A stretch of DNA of 31,332 nt from Candidatus Thorarchaeota archaeon (GCA_011364905.1 RDNZ01000032.1:1-31332), one strand, 5' to 3'; counted from the stretch's first letter, positions 13,067-19,630 are shown. The notes: a model not told the origin generated them from the sequence alone. Program-made: numbers and translations.

Positions 13067-13981
13067 GTGCCAAAGGCGATTCACTCTATATGGTGGGATG
13101 ACAACCTTGGACCATCCGTCGGACGCTCATACCCTGAAACAGACAATCTGACCAGTGAAGAAGCTTTGATCATTTTCATGGGTCATGGAGTGAATCGAGA
13201 AGCTGAAATCGGATATTCAAAATTGCCTCGTGGACTGTTTATTTCCTATATGAAACCACCAAATTGCATTGCCATTCATCTTAAGGAAGATGAGAATCCA
13301 ACCATCATTGAACGTAATGTTCTCAGACTTGTAAAGTATATTGATTTCAATAGTGATACATGGGATGCGGAACTACAGAGGGCTTTTGAACTATTGAATG
13401 AGCTGATAGATGAAACAAGTGGTGCTGAACTTCTTACAAATCCAGGTGTCAAAAAGCTCGTTGAGGACTTTGCTAAGAAACGCATGACTTCGATTAAACC
13501 AAAACACGTGCTTCGAGCCTCAGTAAGATATCCTGAAGCGTATGACTACTTTGGTACTGATGATGCAGAAGTTGTAAGACTTCTAAAAGATCTTGAAGAT
13601 GAGAACCTACTAGAATCTCGCACCTATGGAAGACGCATCGAGTGCAGGCAATGTGGCGCTTCAGACTTGACCGTTGAACTTCTTTGTCCAAAATGTGACT
13701 CCAATGACATTCACAAAGTATACACTTTGTTTTGTCCAAAGTGCAGCAATCAATTCCATGCAGTAATGATGGACGATATTGCAGAGGTCGTGTGTCAACA
13801 CTGCAAAGAACCTATCAAAGTTGGAGAACTATCAATTATTGATGTTGAGCCATTGTGTAACCAATGCGGGACAGCATCGAATGATCCAAGGATTGTATTT
13901 CGGTGTGCATCCTGTGGAAAGTATCTACGAGGAGCGGACCTCCTAGCAGGCACTGGTCTGGCTTACTATCCAAAAAAGTAA
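13067..13981 (+). CDS. uDENN/longin-like N-terminal domain fused to a TackOD1-like (wHTH + Zn-ribbon) domain
   Basis: N-terminal 'IHSIWWDDNLGPSVGRSYP'; C-terminal 'VRYPEA...LLKDLEDENLLES' followed by six CxxC motifs (CRQC, CPKC, CPKC, CQHC, CNQC, CASC). Confidence 0.65.
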   Translation: MPKAIHSIWWDDNLGPSVGRSYPETDNLTSEEALIIFMGHGVNREAEIGYSKLPRGLFISYMKPPNCIAIHLKEDENPTIIERNVLRLVKYIDFNSDTWDAELQRAFELLNELIDETSGAELLTNPGVKKLVEDFAKKRMTSIKPKHVLRASVRYPEAYDYFGTDDAEVVRLLKDLEDENLLESRTYGRRIECRQCGASDLTVELLCPKCDSNDIHKVYTLFCPKCSNQFHAVMMDDIAEVVCQHCKEPIKVGELSIIDVEPLCNQCGTASNDPRIVFRCASCGKYLRGADLLAGTGLAYYPKK

Positions 13982-14911: not shown

Positions 14912-16492
14912 CTACTTCTTCTTCTTCTTTTTCTTTACGGTCTTCTTCACGACTTTGCGGGCATCCTTCAGGATTTTCTCAGCACGAGCGAGACTTAGTC
15001 CTTCAATTTTCTGGGAGAGTCTTTGAGCAGACTCGCCAGCTAGTTGAGCGGCGGATGAATACCCCGCCGCTATCAGTTTTTTCTCGAGGCTGGACCCGAT
15101 GCCGGGAATTCTTCGAAGCGGGAGCATCTCGCTGAACTCATCGCCCAAAATGTCTTCCATTTCACTATCGCTCAACTCAGTACCAGCATCGATGATATCG
15201 AGTTGACTCTTTATTGATGCAAAGTCATCAGCCCTCACGAATGCATCGACTGTCCGCTTTATTTGCCGGGCATCAAAATCAAAGTCAAGATCCTCCATCT
15301 CAATCTCTCTACCGAGAGTAGTGGGCAACGGTCCAGTCAAATAGAGAGCTCCAAGTGACAAAAGAATGGCGAGTTGCCCCCCAATATATGACAGCCAGCC
15401 GGGGGCATTAAAGGTGACTCCAAATACCACCAGGTTTAGGTCCAAAGCCCAAAAAAGGGTCATATATCCAAGGAAAAAGAACCAGTACAGAGAGAGTCTA
15501 AATCCCTTAGTCCTCACGGGACCTAGTTCCGGCCAGATTAGAAGCAGACATAATCCAAGGAGAAAGCCTTCCACAAATCTTTCTGATAATAAGAGAGGCA
15601 ATAAATAGCCAGTACCGTATAGTGAAGAACCAAAAATGGTTAGTAGACCAATGAGGAGAATAACAAATCGAAAAGCTGTTTTCCTACCAAGACGATCCGA
15701 GATGAATCCCGCTAGGAGAATTGATGCTACAAAGGGCAACATTTCGAAATATCCAATATTAACGGACTGACTCAGCGAAACAACCGGAGGATCCAAACCC
15801 AATAGACTCTGCTTTGTGACTGTGAACCAAAGCAGATGAGCTCCAAGAACGAATGTCATTGGAATGAAGTATTTGAACGAACTTCCTGCAATTGTAAGGG
15901 ATGCGCGAGCAACCCTCCATGGTCTGAACGATGCTGAGATCAAAACTGCAACCAATGAAATGAACGCTGGAACAGGAATTTTGTTCATAAGAACTGCGAA
16001 GACTTCGAGACCGTCAATATACCTGAAGAGTAGGTAAAAGATGACTGCTGTAGCTAAGAAGATTGAAACTACTCTTCCACGAAAACGTATCACTACGCTT
16101 TGATTTATTCGTGCAGCCCATGAAATGAGCATGAGAGCAAGACAAGCAAATGTAATAGTAGACAACAAGATCGGATACGATTCTGAAACTACAGGGAGAA
16201 CATCCAAAAAACCAAGAATCCCTACAAAACTCGGTAGCAATGCGGCAATGTACATGAGAAAGTCATGTTTCCTTATTTTGTCAACCAGCAATCCTGAGAG
16301 AGGTAGAGCAATTGTTGCAGTAAGTGCTCCATAGCCAAGAAGTCCATAGTGCTCAGGTACGGTCACACTCATGAAGCTGAATAGAGTACCGGACAAGAGA
16401 CCTACAATGATGTAGATAGAGAATGCCATTGGTACTGCTAGTAACACGTAGATAACCATGGTCTTCAAAGGAAAATCTCTGTACTCCAACAT
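14912..16492 (-). CDS. MFS-like polytopic membrane protein with a C-terminal helix-hairpin-helix (HHH_5-like) domain and poly-Lys tail
   Basis: About 12 TM segments with motif-A-like 'SGLLVDKIRK' and 'AGFISDRLGRK'; C-terminal 'LRRIPGIGSSLEKKLIAAGY...IEGLSLARAEKIL' and 'KKTVKKKKKKK'. Confidence 0.72.
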   Translation of the reverse strand: MLEYRDFPLKTMVIYVLLAVPMAFSIYIIVGLLSGTLFSFMSVTVPEHYGLLGYGALTATIALPLSGLLVDKIRKHDFLMYIAALLPSFVGILGFLDVLPVVSESYPILLSTITFACLALMLISWAARINQSVVIRFRGRVVSIFLATAVIFYLLFRYIDGLEVFAVLMNKIPVPAFISLVAVLISASFRPWRVARASLTIAGSSFKYFIPMTFVLGAHLLWFTVTKQSLLGLDPPVVSLSQSVNIGYFEMLPFVASILLAGFISDRLGRKTAFRFVILLIGLLTIFGSSLYGTGYLLPLLLSERFVEGFLLGLCLLLIWPELGPVRTKGFRLSLYWFFFLGYMTLFWALDLNLVVFGVTFNAPGWLSYIGGQLAILLSLGALYLTGPLPTTLGREIEMEDLDFDFDARQIKRTVDAFVRADDFASIKSQLDIIDAGTELSDSEMEDILGDEFSEMLPLRRIPGIGSSLEKKLIAAGYSSAAQLAGESAQRLSQKIEGLSLARAEKILKDARKVVKKTVKKKKKKK

Positions 16493-16617
16493 GCTGCATC
16501 AACCCGCTACAAACCCAAATCAGTTTCCAGTTATGGATGTTTCGTGCTAATTCACTCATTCAAGGCCGATATCTTAAAGACTATTCAGAATCTGGAATAA
16601 GTCAGGAGTTAAAGTAC

Positions 16618-17517
16618 TTGGTCGAAAAACTCGGTGTTCTTGAATTCATGGTCCTTACAGCTGGCGGGACTCCTATCTTCCATTTCTCCAAGACTGCAAC
16701 CAGAAAATTGGATGAGTTGTTGTCCGGCTTTCTAAGCGCTATCACAAGTTTTGCTACCGAGTTTGGAGAGAAATCAATCCAGAGATTGTCTTTTGAAGGA
16801 TCAGAGCTTTTGTATGAGCAATATGGCACAGACTATCTCTTCATCTTTCTTGTAGAATCGGGCTCATCAGAGAAAGTGTTGCGCGTTGTATTAAGAGAAC
16901 TTACAAAGCGATTCGTTTCGAGATATGAGAACGAGATGAAAATGGACATACCTGTCCTCGATGTGTTTTTGGATTTCGAGCGTGATGTTCGCGCAGTCTT
17001 TGATTACTATGAAGAGATATTGCTCATTATGTCAAGTCTAAGTTCCTTTGTTATTCCAGAAACGAAGAAGGAGAATTTGGACATTGCAATAAGAAGCGGA
17101 GGATTCCTTGACGAATTCCACAGGGATCTTGGAAATTCCGGGAATCGAGTATTATCAGCAATAGATGGTAGGACATCAATCCACAATATTGGCAGGAATT
17201 TAGCGCTTTCAGAAAATGAGATTTTTGAGGTGATCGAGTATTTAGCAATTCGGGGACTTCTCAAGATTTCGAAGTTATGCCCATTGCTTCAGGAGAAAGA
17301 TGCGCGATTTGATGCCTATCTCGACTTGATTGGTCTACCAAACAAGGACTATCAACTCCTTGACCGTGCAAAATCGCTATGCGATGGTGAACACGGCTTA
17401 GTAGATGTTAGTGAAAGGCTTGGAGTTATTCCAGAGCAGTTGTACGATGTTCTTGAGAAGCTTGGTGACGAGGTGGAATGGAAACTCGTCGAGGTGAGCG
17501 GATTAGTAGGTGACTAG
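16618..17517 (+). CDS. Longin-domain protein with two C-terminal winged-helix domains (NPRL2-like architecture), paralogue A
   Basis: Longin pattern 'FMVLTAGGTPIF...LLSGFLSAITSFA...IQRLSF..SELLYE...YLFIFLV...LRELTKRFVSRY'; wHTH 'VLSAIDGRTSIHNIG...VIEYLAIRGLLKI' and 'LCDGEHGLVDVSERLG'. TTG start at 16618 follows AGGAG; the ORF is open from 16537. Confidence 0.7.
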   Translation: MVEKLGVLEFMVLTAGGTPIFHFSKTATRKLDELLSGFLSAITSFATEFGEKSIQRLSFEGSELLYEQYGTDYLFIFLVESGSSEKVLRVVLRELTKRFVSRYENEMKMDIPVLDVFLDFERDVRAVFDYYEEILLIMSSLSSFVIPETKKENLDIAIRSGGFLDEFHRDLGNSGNRVLSAIDGRTSIHNIGRNLALSENEIFEVIEYLAIRGLLKISKLCPLLQEKDARFDAYLDLIGLPNKDYQLLDRAKSLCDGEHGLVDVSERLGVIPEQLYDVLEKLGDEVEWKLVEVSGLVGD

Positions 17518-17550
17518 AACCCCTGAATTAAAGCGTCATCATTTTAGCCA

Positions 17551-17561
17551 AAGATATTAAG
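17551..17561 (+). promoter_or_regulatory. Putative archaeal BRE/TATA box
   Basis: Purine-rich AAG followed by ATATTAAG about 50 nt upstream of the 17611 start. Confidence 0.35.
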
Positions 17562-17610
17562 TGCCTTCACATAATTCGTTGAGCAGCTGTGTTGCTTGGA
17601 GGCCACCTCA

Positions 17611-18888
17611 GTGGTGAAAGAAATCATTGTTCTCCGTGAATCAGGGATTCTGCTCTTCCACTATAGTGTAGGCGGAACACGTAGACTTGATGAACTCACA
17701 GCCGCATTCTTGTCGGCTATGGGATCTTTCGCTCAGGAGGTCAGCCAAGACAGAATTAAAGCGATGTCATTTGCCAAAAATAAGCTGGTCTGGGAACGAA
17801 AAGGAGACCTCTACTTCATTGCGCTCGTATCCGAAGAAGATAGTGGTGAGATTCACAGAGTAATACTCCAAGATCTTGCAGAGCAGTTCGTTAGCATGTT
17901 CTATTCCGAATTGAGAAGGGAACTCCCGAACTCCAAAAAGTTTAGACCATTCGCGGATACTGTTGAGGCAACACTACAGAAGTTCGATGGCATTCCCGGT
18001 CTTGCACGAAGGTACAAAACAATACTACTACCTGCAAAAGACATCAATGCTTTGAAACGCGCACTCGCAGAAGTGGAAATCAATCGTGATATTCTGAGAG
18101 GAGGAATGGTCACATCAGATGGATATGTTGCTGTTTCAAACCTCAGAGCATATGAACTTGAGGCTGTGTTGGATCTTATATCCACAGTGAATGAAAGGGT
18201 CGAGATGAAAGACCACGCAAGTCTTGAGAAAGGCACATCCTTTTTGATGGTACAAATTCCGAAAAAGGGGATTGTTGCATTTGTGGTGAAGCTTGGAATG
18301 TCGGACAAGACCTACCTAGATCTTGTGAATCCGTTTACTTCACTTCTGCAGCTTACGAGTTTCGCAGATGCAAGGAAATTCAAACCTGACAAGGTTGAAG
18401 GGCCAATCTCATTCTATGATTTTGATGCTGTAGAACTTGCAGTTTCAGAGGAGGATATTAGACGCGAAACCAAAATGTCGTTATCCTCGTTCTCTGAGAG
18501 TATACAAGCAGGAGCACTAAGACTGGTTAATGCAATAGGAAAAACAACGACAGTCATTGAGGCTGTTGAGGCCAGCGGACTGATCCGTGAACAAGCAGAT
18601 GAGGTTCTTGCACAGCTCATTGCCAAAGGAGTGGTTCATATCTCGAAATTGTTCCCAGTGATGGAGGATAGAGATGAAAGGTTTGTGGCCTATCTAGAGG
18701 TAATAGGAATCAAGAAAAGGGATTTTGATATTGTCGAGTCCATCTGGAAGCTCTGTAATGGCAGTCTTTCGATTCGTGAAATATCGGAAAGGTCAGACAT
18801 CCCAGCACAAAGAATAATCGAAGTCCTTAGAGCTCTAGGTAATTATGTACAATGGTTGAAAGAGAGGATGCTTACTCATGTCAGGTAA
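17611..18888 (+). CDS. Longin-roadblock-double winged-helix protein, paralogue B
   Basis: Longin 'IIVLRESGILLF...TAAFLSAMGSFA...LVWERKGDLYFIALV'; central roadblock-like 'LKRALAEV...ILRGGMVTSDGYVAVSNL...FLMVQI..GIVAFVV'; two wHTH domains paralogous to those of 16618-17517. GTG at 17611 lies 8 nt after GGAGG; the ORF is open from 17596. Confidence 0.7.
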   Translation: MVKEIIVLRESGILLFHYSVGGTRRLDELTAAFLSAMGSFAQEVSQDRIKAMSFAKNKLVWERKGDLYFIALVSEEDSGEIHRVILQDLAEQFVSMFYSELRRELPNSKKFRPFADTVEATLQKFDGIPGLARRYKTILLPAKDINALKRALAEVEINRDILRGGMVTSDGYVAVSNLRAYELEAVLDLISTVNERVEMKDHASLEKGTSFLMVQIPKKGIVAFVVKLGMSDKTYLDLVNPFTSLLQLTSFADARKFKPDKVEGPISFYDFDAVELAVSEEDIRRETKMSLSSFSESIQAGALRLVNAIGKTTTVIEAVEASGLIREQADEVLAQLIAKGVVHISKLFPVMEDRDERFVAYLEVIGIKKRDFDIVESIWKLCNGSLSIREISERSDIPAQRIIEVLRALGNYVQWLKERMLTHVR

Positions 18889-19630
18889 GATAGTTTCGAT
18901 TCATAGTTTCAGAGGTGGCACCGGAAAATCAAACATTGCGGCGAATCTAGCCGCAGCAGCCGCCTTAGATGGAAAACGAGTAGCCGTGATGGATACTGAT
19001 ATGGCATCACCAGGTATTCATGTCATCTTTGGCATGGGCAGGGAGAGGATGAAGTACACCCTCAACGACTACCTTCGAGGGTCATGTGATATCACCGATG
19101 CTTGCGTGGACCTAACATCTCGATTGAAAATCAAACAAGGAAAACTCTTCCTCATTCCAAGTTCTATGACAGCAACTGATATCACGAGAATTCTTAGAGA
19201 GGGATATGAGGTTGGAGACCTAAAGAAAGGATTCACGGATGTCATAAGGAAGAAGGATCTGGATTATCTTATCATTGACACACATCCGGGACTTGATCGC
19301 GAAACTTTGCTGTCCATGGCCACAGCGGACTATCTCTTCGTTGTTGCCAGGATTGATGAACAGGATTTATTGGGAACTGCTGCAACCTTGAGTGTAGCCC
19401 GAAAGCTGCAAGTGCCTGACATTCGCATCATCATCAATAAGAAACCTGGTATCTATGAGAACAAAGCAATCATTTCCGAAGTTGAACAAAAATTCAAAAC
19501 AACTGTGGCAACTATTATCCCGCTCCTTCCCCTTCTCATCGAAGCCGGAAGCCGATATGTCGTCACACTCAGGCATCCAGATAGCGAATTCACCAAGAAC
19601 ATTGATGAGATCTACCGACTGATGAAGTGA
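18878..19630 (+). CDS. MinD/ParA-family (SIMIBI) ATPase
   Basis: Deviant Walker A 'SFRGGTGKSN', 'VAVMDTD..SPG', 'TLNDYL', 'YLIIDTHPG'; overlaps the upstream gene by 11 nt. Confidence 0.92.
   Translation: MSGKIVSIHSFRGGTGKSNIAANLAAAAALDGKRVAVMDTDMASPGIHVIFGMGRERMKYTLNDYLRGSCDITDACVDLTSRLKIKQGKLFLIPSSMTATDITRILREGYEVGDLKKGFTDVIRKKDLDYLIIDTHPGLDRETLLSMATADYLFVVARIDEQDLLGTAATLSVARKLQVPDIRIIINKKPGIYENKAIISEVEQKFKTTVATIIPLLPLLIEAGSRYVVTLRHPDSEFTKNIDEIYRLMK

Follow-up and report, generated by a model that had tools for sequence, protein, structure and literature searches.

What does a pair of adjacent longin genes do in the chromosome of an Asgard archaeon when the second of them runs into the gene of a MinD/ParA-type ATPase? 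The question is raised by a 31,332-nt stretch of Candidatus Thorarchaeota archaeon DNA (GCA_011364905.1, RDNZ01000032.1:1-31332; hereafter the window, meaning the whole stretch), a contig of a metagenome-assembled genome (MAG) that is 81% complete, on which a head-to-tail trio on the + strand encodes the paralogues A and B, in that order, and then the ATPase. The first-pass annotation had read this trio as a candidate new signalling module, in which two NPRL2/NPRL3-like proteins form a longin heterodimer with the ATPase as its partner NTPase. In this study, we find that the gene link between B and the ATPase is real and old, predating the split between Thorarchaeota and Hodarchaeota-type archaea. 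We propose, as a reading to which we give an even chance of being right, that the locus is a chromosomal, vertically inherited Asgard version (Thorarchaeia and Hodarchaeota-type) of a two-component module, a variant ParA/MinD ATPase with a winged-helix partner, acting as a switch or platform in housekeeping positioning or signalling.

The order A, B, ATPase is kept in almost all of 57 Thorarchaeota loci where the contig allows, and in other Thorarchaeota loci, too, B and the ATPase gene overlap or lie a few bases apart. As the whole Thorarchaeota neighbourhood is also colinear, this synteny alone is little proof of a link. Hodarchaeota-type contigs carry directly upstream of the ATPase gene a protein of 409-422 aa without a Pfam match, which hhalign identifies as an orthologue of B over its full length (probability 100%, E 5.6e-55, 415 columns). 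In a phyletic survey of a sample of 300 Asgard genomes, with families numbered f1, f2, f12, f28 and f30, full-length B was found in f1 (64/76), f2 (1/1) and f12 (18/19) and in no other family; a membrane protein with a helix-hairpin-helix (HhH) domain was found in f1, f2 and f12 only, and the ATPase orthologue in these three plus f28 and f30. In the Hodarchaeota-type family f12, B lies 35-105 nt upstream of the ATPase gene on the same strand in all 17 genomes with both genes on one contig (17/17), and in f2 a full-length B is likewise directly upstream; the genes flanking the Hodarchaeota-type loci, the HhH membrane gene excepted, differ from those in Thorarchaeota. The synteny with a MinD-type gene, which the first-pass annotation had left to be checked across Asgard genomes, is conserved in this way beyond Thorarchaeota, in Hodarchaeota-type genomes and in f2. 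In both Thorarchaeota and Hodarchaeota-type archaea the module is single copy, has a fixed position in the core genome and is vertically inherited.

A and B are clearly paralogous in sequence, as had been claimed for them. BLASTP aligned them in two collinear segments, an N-terminal one of 31% identity over 185 aa (E 3e-23) and a C-terminal one of 30% identity over 125 aa (E 1e-19), with about 125 extra residues in the middle of B, and the peptides quoted in the first-pass annotation are all present in the two open reading frames (ORFs). AlphaFold2 models built from family alignments (mean predicted local distance difference test score, pLDDT, 69-71) show both N-termini as beta-beta-alpha-beta-beta-beta-alpha and both C-termini as two helix-helix-helix-hairpin units, in agreement with the longin and the two winged helix-turn-helix (wHTH) units first assigned to each protein. 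Against solved longin domains, residues 5-138 of A score Z 11-14 with a root-mean-square deviation (rmsd) of about 3 Å, the matches being TRAPP Tca17/sedlin/synbindin, the VAMP7 and Sec22 longins, adaptin sigma/mu, the SRX domain of the SRP receptor and Fuzzy, and sub-threshold matches to Fuz_longin_1 occurred in 22/22 A-family members. The longin of B, homologous to that of A, was modelled with low confidence (pLDDT 36-57), and residues 136-263 of B (ORF numbering from 17596) are a roadblock/LC7 domain (Z 10-12.5, rmsd 2.5-3.0) that matches MglB, Asgard roadblocks, the C-terminal domains of RagC/Gtr2, LAMTOR and the later domains of Mon1, Ccz1 and Inturned. A winged helix of B scored above the Pfam cut-off for TrmB-type wHTH (32.8 bits). 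The winged helices of A and B are acidic to neutral (pI 4.3-8.1), which disfavours DNA coating and favours protein contacts. In a maximum-likelihood tree, A and B were each monophyletic at 100/100; the single copy of f2 grouped with A at 94/92, below the starred threshold, and the order of duplication was not settled. Searches of the ESM Atlas gave only Asgard clusters without names. Distant Asgard proteins that share the C-terminal winged-helix tandem, some of them with a longin, were also noted (G000:C57:110300-111355 on the - strand, P0264, P0289 and P0312), and these stand without a MinD-type neighbour, no such gene adjoining the longin-wHTH relatives P0264 and P0312; the nearest Atlas structural cluster for these distant proteins is a 360-aa Asgard family at a template modelling score (TM) of 0.57.

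How far this likeness extends to NPRL2/NPRL3 themselves was evaluated by structure and by sequence. Foldseek against the PDB placed human GATOR1 NPRL3/NPRL2 chains at all of ranks 1-6 for A (E 7.6e-7 to 2e-5, 344-461 columns), at a TM of just 0.25-0.29, and for B gave Fuzzy-Inturned and Mon1-Ccz1 as best matches with NPRL3 after them (TM 0.2-0.3). Since these TM values are low, the common feature is domain order and not rigid shape. Pfam NPR2 (PF06218) and HTH_NPRL3 (PF24064) matched neither A nor B, also in a genome-wide search, and HMMER profiles of A, of B and of the C-terminal tandem found no NPRL chain among PDB sequences up to E 10, returning only generic winged helices at E >0.05. Sub-threshold HTH_NPRL3 matches (E 0.0015-0.002) were limited to the Hodarchaeota-type and f2 orthologues. 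A weak HTH_NPRL3 match on contig C47 was rejected because it comes from an unrelated wHTH protein of 290 aa that is encoded next to radical-SAM and DUF2797 genes. Since no NPRL2/3 sequence model matches them, A and B are classed as built like NPRL2/3 and not as members of that family, and in the models their likeness is one of architecture alone; the resemblance first proposed therefore stands in the full-length Foldseek best matches of A and not in sequence, and the proposed likeness to NPRL2 wHTH motifs is not detectable by NPRL2/NPRL3 sequence models. An 'NPRL2-like' family of Thorarchaeota and Lokiarchaeota with longin plus winged-helix organisation, present in most Thorarchaeota MAGs, is described by Liu et al. 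(bioRxiv 10.1101/2020.10.19.343400); A and B may be the very family meant there.

These fold matches are among the arguments for the hypothesis that the A-B longin heterodimer is a GATOR1-like GTPase-activating protein (GAP) or guanine nucleotide exchange factor (GEF) of the MinD-type ATPase, which would stand in for the Rag/Ras-like GTPase of a switch in nutrient signalling or positioning. Besides the top Foldseek ranks (NPRL3/NPRL2 for A at E 7.6e-7 to 1.7e-5, tri-longin GEFs and NPRL3 for B), it can call on the matches of the B roadblock to Rag C-terminal domains, MglB and LAMTOR, and on the ParA that displaces MglA beside MglB in the preprint discussed below. However, the heterodimer is not conserved, as a lone B or a lone A suffices in some lineages: B alone stands by the ATPase in f2 and f12, and A alone in the Thorarchaeota genus g12, where six genomes, including L072 (G170:C86), encode one A-type protein of 301-311 aa immediately ahead of the ATPase, the neighbourhood being colinear in other respects and B not being found. 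G16-G17-x-P19 and R29 are invariant in A, and B keeps G17 only, without the Pro and the conserved Arg. By rigid alignment, the A longin resembles TRAPP, adaptin or SRX longins at least as well as it does NPRL2, and the wHTH partners in the wider clade of the ATPase have no longin. The role of the longin heterodimer as regulator of the ATPase is thus weakened, by the existence of lineages with A or B alone and by the small helix plus wHTH protein that is the recurrent neighbour in the clade, and we consider this hypothesis distinctly unlikely. On the reading preferred here, the module is not a GATOR1-like GAP on a Rag GTPase.

The ATPase itself is a deviant-Walker-A protein of unusual type. It scored above the Pfam thresholds for AAA_31, ParA and CbiA, and the overlap of the second longin gene with a MinD/ParA gene, as first annotated, is 11 nt long, which suggests translational coupling. 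Its Walker A, HSFRGGTGKS, has Arg in place of the signature Lys and retains the P-loop Lys. Alignment of 22 orthologues shows K17, S18, D39, D41 and D134 without variation, with P-loop Lys, DxD and Walker B Asp all present; R12 is likewise invariant, in 22/22 aligned orthologues and in all 80 metagenome relatives analysed below, so the signature Lys of KGGxGK[ST] is absent from them. DTDxxSPG and DTHPG are kept in all ATPase orthologues, S10 is also present, and the protein is the sole Arg variant among six deviant-Walker-A ATPases found in the host genome. Among solved proteins it is closest to MinD of archaea and bacteria (E 2e-12 to 1e-10), and it scores higher on MinD models than on ParA partition models, the archaeal MinD model TIGR01969 giving 83 bits, far below its cut-off of 201.75; the NCBIfam KGGVGR variant model gave 60 with a cut-off of 90. 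The protein is mildly basic (pI 8.9), and a simple hydrophobicity scan gave no sign of a membrane helix at its C-terminus. Identity across Thorarchaeota is 76-98% for the ATPase, 47-85% for A and 41-85% for B, and the ATPase is 50-61% identical to its orthologues in Hodarchaeota, Helarchaeota and other Asgards; A and B do not diverge faster than nearby metabolic genes.

Relatives of the ATPase are widespread, and a motif scan with RGGTGKSN and SPGxHxxFG recovered at least 586 metagenome stretches that encode them. The best 80 of these at least 586 stretches, with a GC of 0.37 to 0.70, include 7 of Thorarchaeota/Hodarchaeota type, and in 38 of the other 73 we found an ORF of about 110 aa with a long helix and a wHTH, or a protein of 650-980 aa that contains this module. 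Among loci of at least 4 kb, the small wHTH ORF or the large module-bearing protein was present in 30/45, counted in the fetched stretch within about 3.5 kb, and either of them is often immediately up- or downstream of the ATPase gene. Alignment of the small wHTH family with the winged-helix region of A/B by hhalign gave E 3.8e-5 and a probability of 71%, compared with E 0.32 for a reversed control, and extended into the RF.AYLE.IG..K.D...IW segment of A/B, which gives moderate support for homology of the two. A rough FastTree sketch, read for its topology, placed the Thorarchaeota, f2 and Hodarchaeota-type ATPases in one clade apart from those of Helarchaeota and those linked to small wHTH proteins. 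Because the wHTH module is a recurrent neighbour of the ATPase clade and longin plus roadblock occur only in the Thorarchaeota/f2/Hodarchaeota-type branch, the winged-helix part is the likely ATPase contact, and the likely interface thereby moves away from the longin dimer. We infer from these comparisons that the winged-helix part, and not the longin dimer, is the ancestral partner of the ATPase, longin and roadblock being Asgard additions. A prediction of the complex of A, B and the ATPase (979 residues, own alignments) gave 0.00 in two runs in which the ATPase chain alone was scored, with no controls, and weighs neither way. Two further arrangements were recorded in the clade: the metagenome loci L085, L106, L107, L150 and L151 carry the HSFRGGTGKSN ATPase followed by a tandem paralogue with the P-loop HSFRRGTGK[TS], in which the second Gly is changed to Arg, and on the high-GC metagenome contigs L114, L133, L142, L146 and L148, proteins of 961-976 aa with the helix plus wHTH module start 6-37 nt past the ATPase gene.

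A system of this kind has been described recently. The preprint 'Widespread Recruitment of ParA-like NTPases into Prokaryotic Immunity' (bioRxiv 10.64898/2026.10.19.760177) presents a mainly archaeal ParA-wHTH system (ConB2 assemblage), in which a ParA whose Walker A bears an Arg substitution and whose DxD sensor is followed by a PG motif is coupled to one or more wHTH genes, the wHTH being fused in some versions to a profilin/longin-like domain, and it also presents a ParA that displaces MglA beside MglB. The gene context of our ATPase clade fits this ParA-wHTH system as described there, and the earlier statement that no pairing with MinD was known is out of date since this 2026 preprint. Its legend says that the 'second lysine' is replaced and its text calls the dimer-interface Lys 'first', so that the identity of the replaced residue is ambiguous, and Asgard, Thorarchaeota and Lokiarchaeota are not named in its text.

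The module could accordingly be an anti-mobile-element defence system, with a wHTH that senses invader DNA, a ParA that assembles on DNA and longin-like domains that add multimerisation. Mainly archaeal distribution, profilin/longin-like fusion, Arg Walker A and PG motif are reported for ParA-wHTH systems, and the ATPase here has S10, R12 and DTDxxSPG; the ambiguity over which Walker A Lys is replaced counts on the other side. The gene neighbours of ATPase relatives differ widely and include tandem ParA paralogues as well as large proteins that bear a wHTH, and a type II restriction-modification-like methyltransferase gene lies two genes off in Hodarchaeota-type loci. On the other hand, the Thorarchaeota and Hodarchaeota-type module is single-copy, core-fixed and vertical, A and B diverge no faster than their metabolic neighbours, the ATPase is exceptionally conserved, and winged helices of pI 4.3-8.1 are poorly suited to coat DNA. 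No relatives were found in IMG/VR, and PADLOC returned weak matches only and no significant family. Fixed position, vertical descent, single copy, ordinary A/B divergence, a conserved ATPase, uniform GC and the IMG/VR and PADLOC results together make a housekeeping role likelier than defence. We therefore regard defence as unlikely, and positioning or signalling as the more likely role in these archaea.

The proposed housekeeping module might have been assembled and might work as follows. The Asgard winged-helix partner would have gained an N-terminal longin and a roadblock, giving the NPRL2/NPRL3-like architecture, and its gene would have been duplicated in Thorarchaeota into A, without the roadblock, and B. 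The ATPase would serve as an ATP-dependent dimerisation switch, and the winged-helix region of A/B, as the putative ancestral contact, would modulate or read its nucleotide state. The longin/roadblock domains may dimerise into a platform, A-B in Thorarchaeota and B-B where B is alone, that ties the switch to another component, for which the best candidate is the co-inherited MFS-like membrane protein with its basic HhH/poly-Lys tail. This divergently encoded protein is a likely third component of the module. Its HhH domain is RadA-type (Pfam HHH_5, E 5.7e-8), the closest Atlas clusters that carry a name are MFS_1 transporters (score 0.94), its last 72 aa have a pI of 10.6, and in Hodarchaeota-type loci a homologue is again divergent beside B (BLASTP E 8e-21).

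The same tail can be interpreted in another way. Partition systems combine a ParA with an HTH adaptor, and the module may by that logic serve DNA segregation or DNA-membrane tethering, with a ParA-type motor, the wHTH proteins filling the adaptor role of ParB/SegB and a membrane protein that holds DNA by its HhH/poly-Lys tail, RadA-type and of net charge +14; the ATPase is mildly basic (pI 8.9). The acidic winged helices of A/B and the better score of the ATPase on MinD models (TIGR01969, below cut-off) than on ParA partition models argue against this, and no repeat or centromere-like site was seen, none having been searched for; the probability of such tethering seems to us slight. It is equally hard to favour an action of A/B on Asgard small GTPases encoded elsewhere, the ATPase being linked for some other reason such as shared localisation. 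Longin plus roadblock platforms usually act on small GTPases, as in MglB, Ragulator, Mon1-Ccz1 and GATOR1, and at least nine Ras/Arf/Rag-like GTPases are encoded on other contigs of the genome. No GTPase gene is present in the window or in related loci, however, and the overlap with the ATPase gene and the common phyletic pattern point to a direct functional link, which leaves this alternative highly improbable.

A bolder form of the platform idea should also be mentioned. In the scaffold logic of GATOR1/Ragulator/SLC38A9, input from a transporter passes through a longin/roadblock platform that sets an NTPase switch. The A/B platform might similarly couple the ParA-type ATP switch to the MFS-like protein as a 'transceptor', or to Asgard small GTPases, and would then represent an archaeal forerunner of this logic, with a SIMIBI ATPase in the place held by the Rag GTPases in eukaryotes; we think this very unlikely.

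Several observations weigh against the housekeeping switch or platform that we prefer. Synteny in Thorarchaeota is partly the plain colinearity of a whole neighbourhood, and it is not without exceptions: in G167 the ATPase gene is on a separate contig, and gaps of 1.2-3.6 kb occur in L033, G075, L028, L050 and L051. At L028, L050, L051 and G075:C6, inserts of 2-4 kb lie between the two paralogues or between B and the ATPase gene. In Helarchaeota and f28, an ATPase orthologue of 49-51% identity is preceded by a TPR protein of 516-528 aa and a protein of 110-137 aa unrelated to B (L066:3108-5753, L071:2411-5260), which means that partners can change; the 110-aa upstream protein of Helarchaeota was considered as a B-like candidate and ruled out (hhalign probability 0.1%). 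The similarity of the small wHTH family to A/B is modest, and winged helices are alike in general. The authors of the ParA-wHTH preprint predict a defence role for these systems (bioRxiv 10.64898/2026.10.19.760177). Finally, we infer all of the binding steps, the dimer and the cellular role in the scheme above.

The coordinates of the trio and of the adjoining divergent gene are given in the table. The TTG at its listed position is the best start for A because homologues open with MVGKLGV, and the GTG is the best start for B because GGAGG precedes it and homologues are 425 aa long. GC is even along the whole window.

Table. Features of the trio and its divergent neighbour, in coordinates of the window
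Feature	Position	Strand	Description
MFS-like membrane protein	14912..16492	-	about 12 hydrophobic segments, acidic linker, C-terminal HhH domain, poly-Lys tail; Pfam HHH_5
Divergent intergenic region, 125 nt, membrane-protein gene to A	16493..16617	.	sequence read
Paralogue A, 299 aa	16618..17517	+	longin residues 5-138 (16630-17031), long helical linker, two winged helices residues 163-292 (17104-17493); acidic, pI 4.7
Paralogue B, 425 aa	17611..18888	+	longin 17611-18000, roadblock/LC7 18001-18384, two winged helices 18448-18858
B/ATPase overlap, 11 nt	18878..18888	+	B stop at 18886-18888, ATPase ATG at 18878
MinD/ParA-class ATPase, 250 aa	18878..19630	+	Walker A HSFRGGTGKS 18902-18931, DTDxxSPG 18992-19015, IDTHPG

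Other genes near these and related loci were recorded as well. On the + strand of the window (13067-13981), a 304-aa protein has a TackOD1 zinc-ribbon output domain (Pfam E 2e-18) after an N-terminal region of about 140 aa without a family, and its gene is syntenic with the module in Thorarchaeota and not in Hodarchaeota-type loci. In the latter, a type II restriction-modification-like N6-methyltransferase (Eco57I/TaqI_C) gene adjoins the HhH membrane gene (L064:235-1890, L069:193-1848). At L076:4911-6290 (G000:C44), two neighbouring Ras-family GTPase genes (179 and 277 aa) lie by PhoU and ABC-ATPase genes.

Both halves of the module, the ParA with its wHTH partner and the NPRL2-like family, are already catalogued, and the module is best seen as an Asgard-specific variant of the recently described ParA plus wHTH kind joined to the reported NPRL2-like family. 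What is new here is the phyletic pattern of three genes, the existence of A-only and B-only lineages, and the small helix plus wHTH protein as the usual partner of the ATPase clade. Longin and roadblock 'eukaryotic signature' proteins of Asgards are numerous, and the module offers for one such family a concrete candidate partner and a candidate membrane component. It suggests, in addition, that the NPRL2/3-like architecture arose here by the joining of longin and roadblock to the winged helix of a prokaryotic ParA partner, which bears on the assembly of eukaryote-like scaffolds. The components are soluble or separable enough for in vitro work.

Comparison with known systems places the module between several of them. 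With the ParA-wHTH (ConB2) system it shares the coupling of a variant ParA to wHTH proteins, the ATPase relatives likewise adjoining wHTH proteins with a long N-terminal helix. S10, R12 and DTDxxSPG here may correspond to the Ser that opens Walker A, the Arg-variant Walker A and the PG after DxD of ConB2, the Lys that ConB2 replaces being ambiguous; in contrast, the partner here has a true longin, a roadblock and two winged helices in tandem and is duplicated, and the module has a fixed place in the core genome of two Asgard lineages and is vertical, not fast-evolving or sporadic. MinD-MinE and ParA-ParB/SegA-SegB also encode a deviant-Walker-A ATPase beside a dedicated partner, while the ATPase here has Arg for the signature Lys and MinC, MinE and ParB are absent. 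With NPRL2-NPRL3 (yeast Npr2-Npr3) of GATOR1/SEACIT, it has in common a paralogue pair with an N-terminal longin and a C-terminal winged-helix region in each member, but no DEPDC5 is present and the neighbour is a SIMIBI ATPase, not a Rag GTPase. MglB-MglA, Ragulator/Rag and the tri-longin GEFs (Mon1-Ccz1, Fuzzy-Inturned) similarly combine a longin/roadblock platform with a P-loop switch, whereas the switch here is a dimerising MinD/ParA ATPase instead of a Ras-like GTPase, and winged helices are added to the platform.

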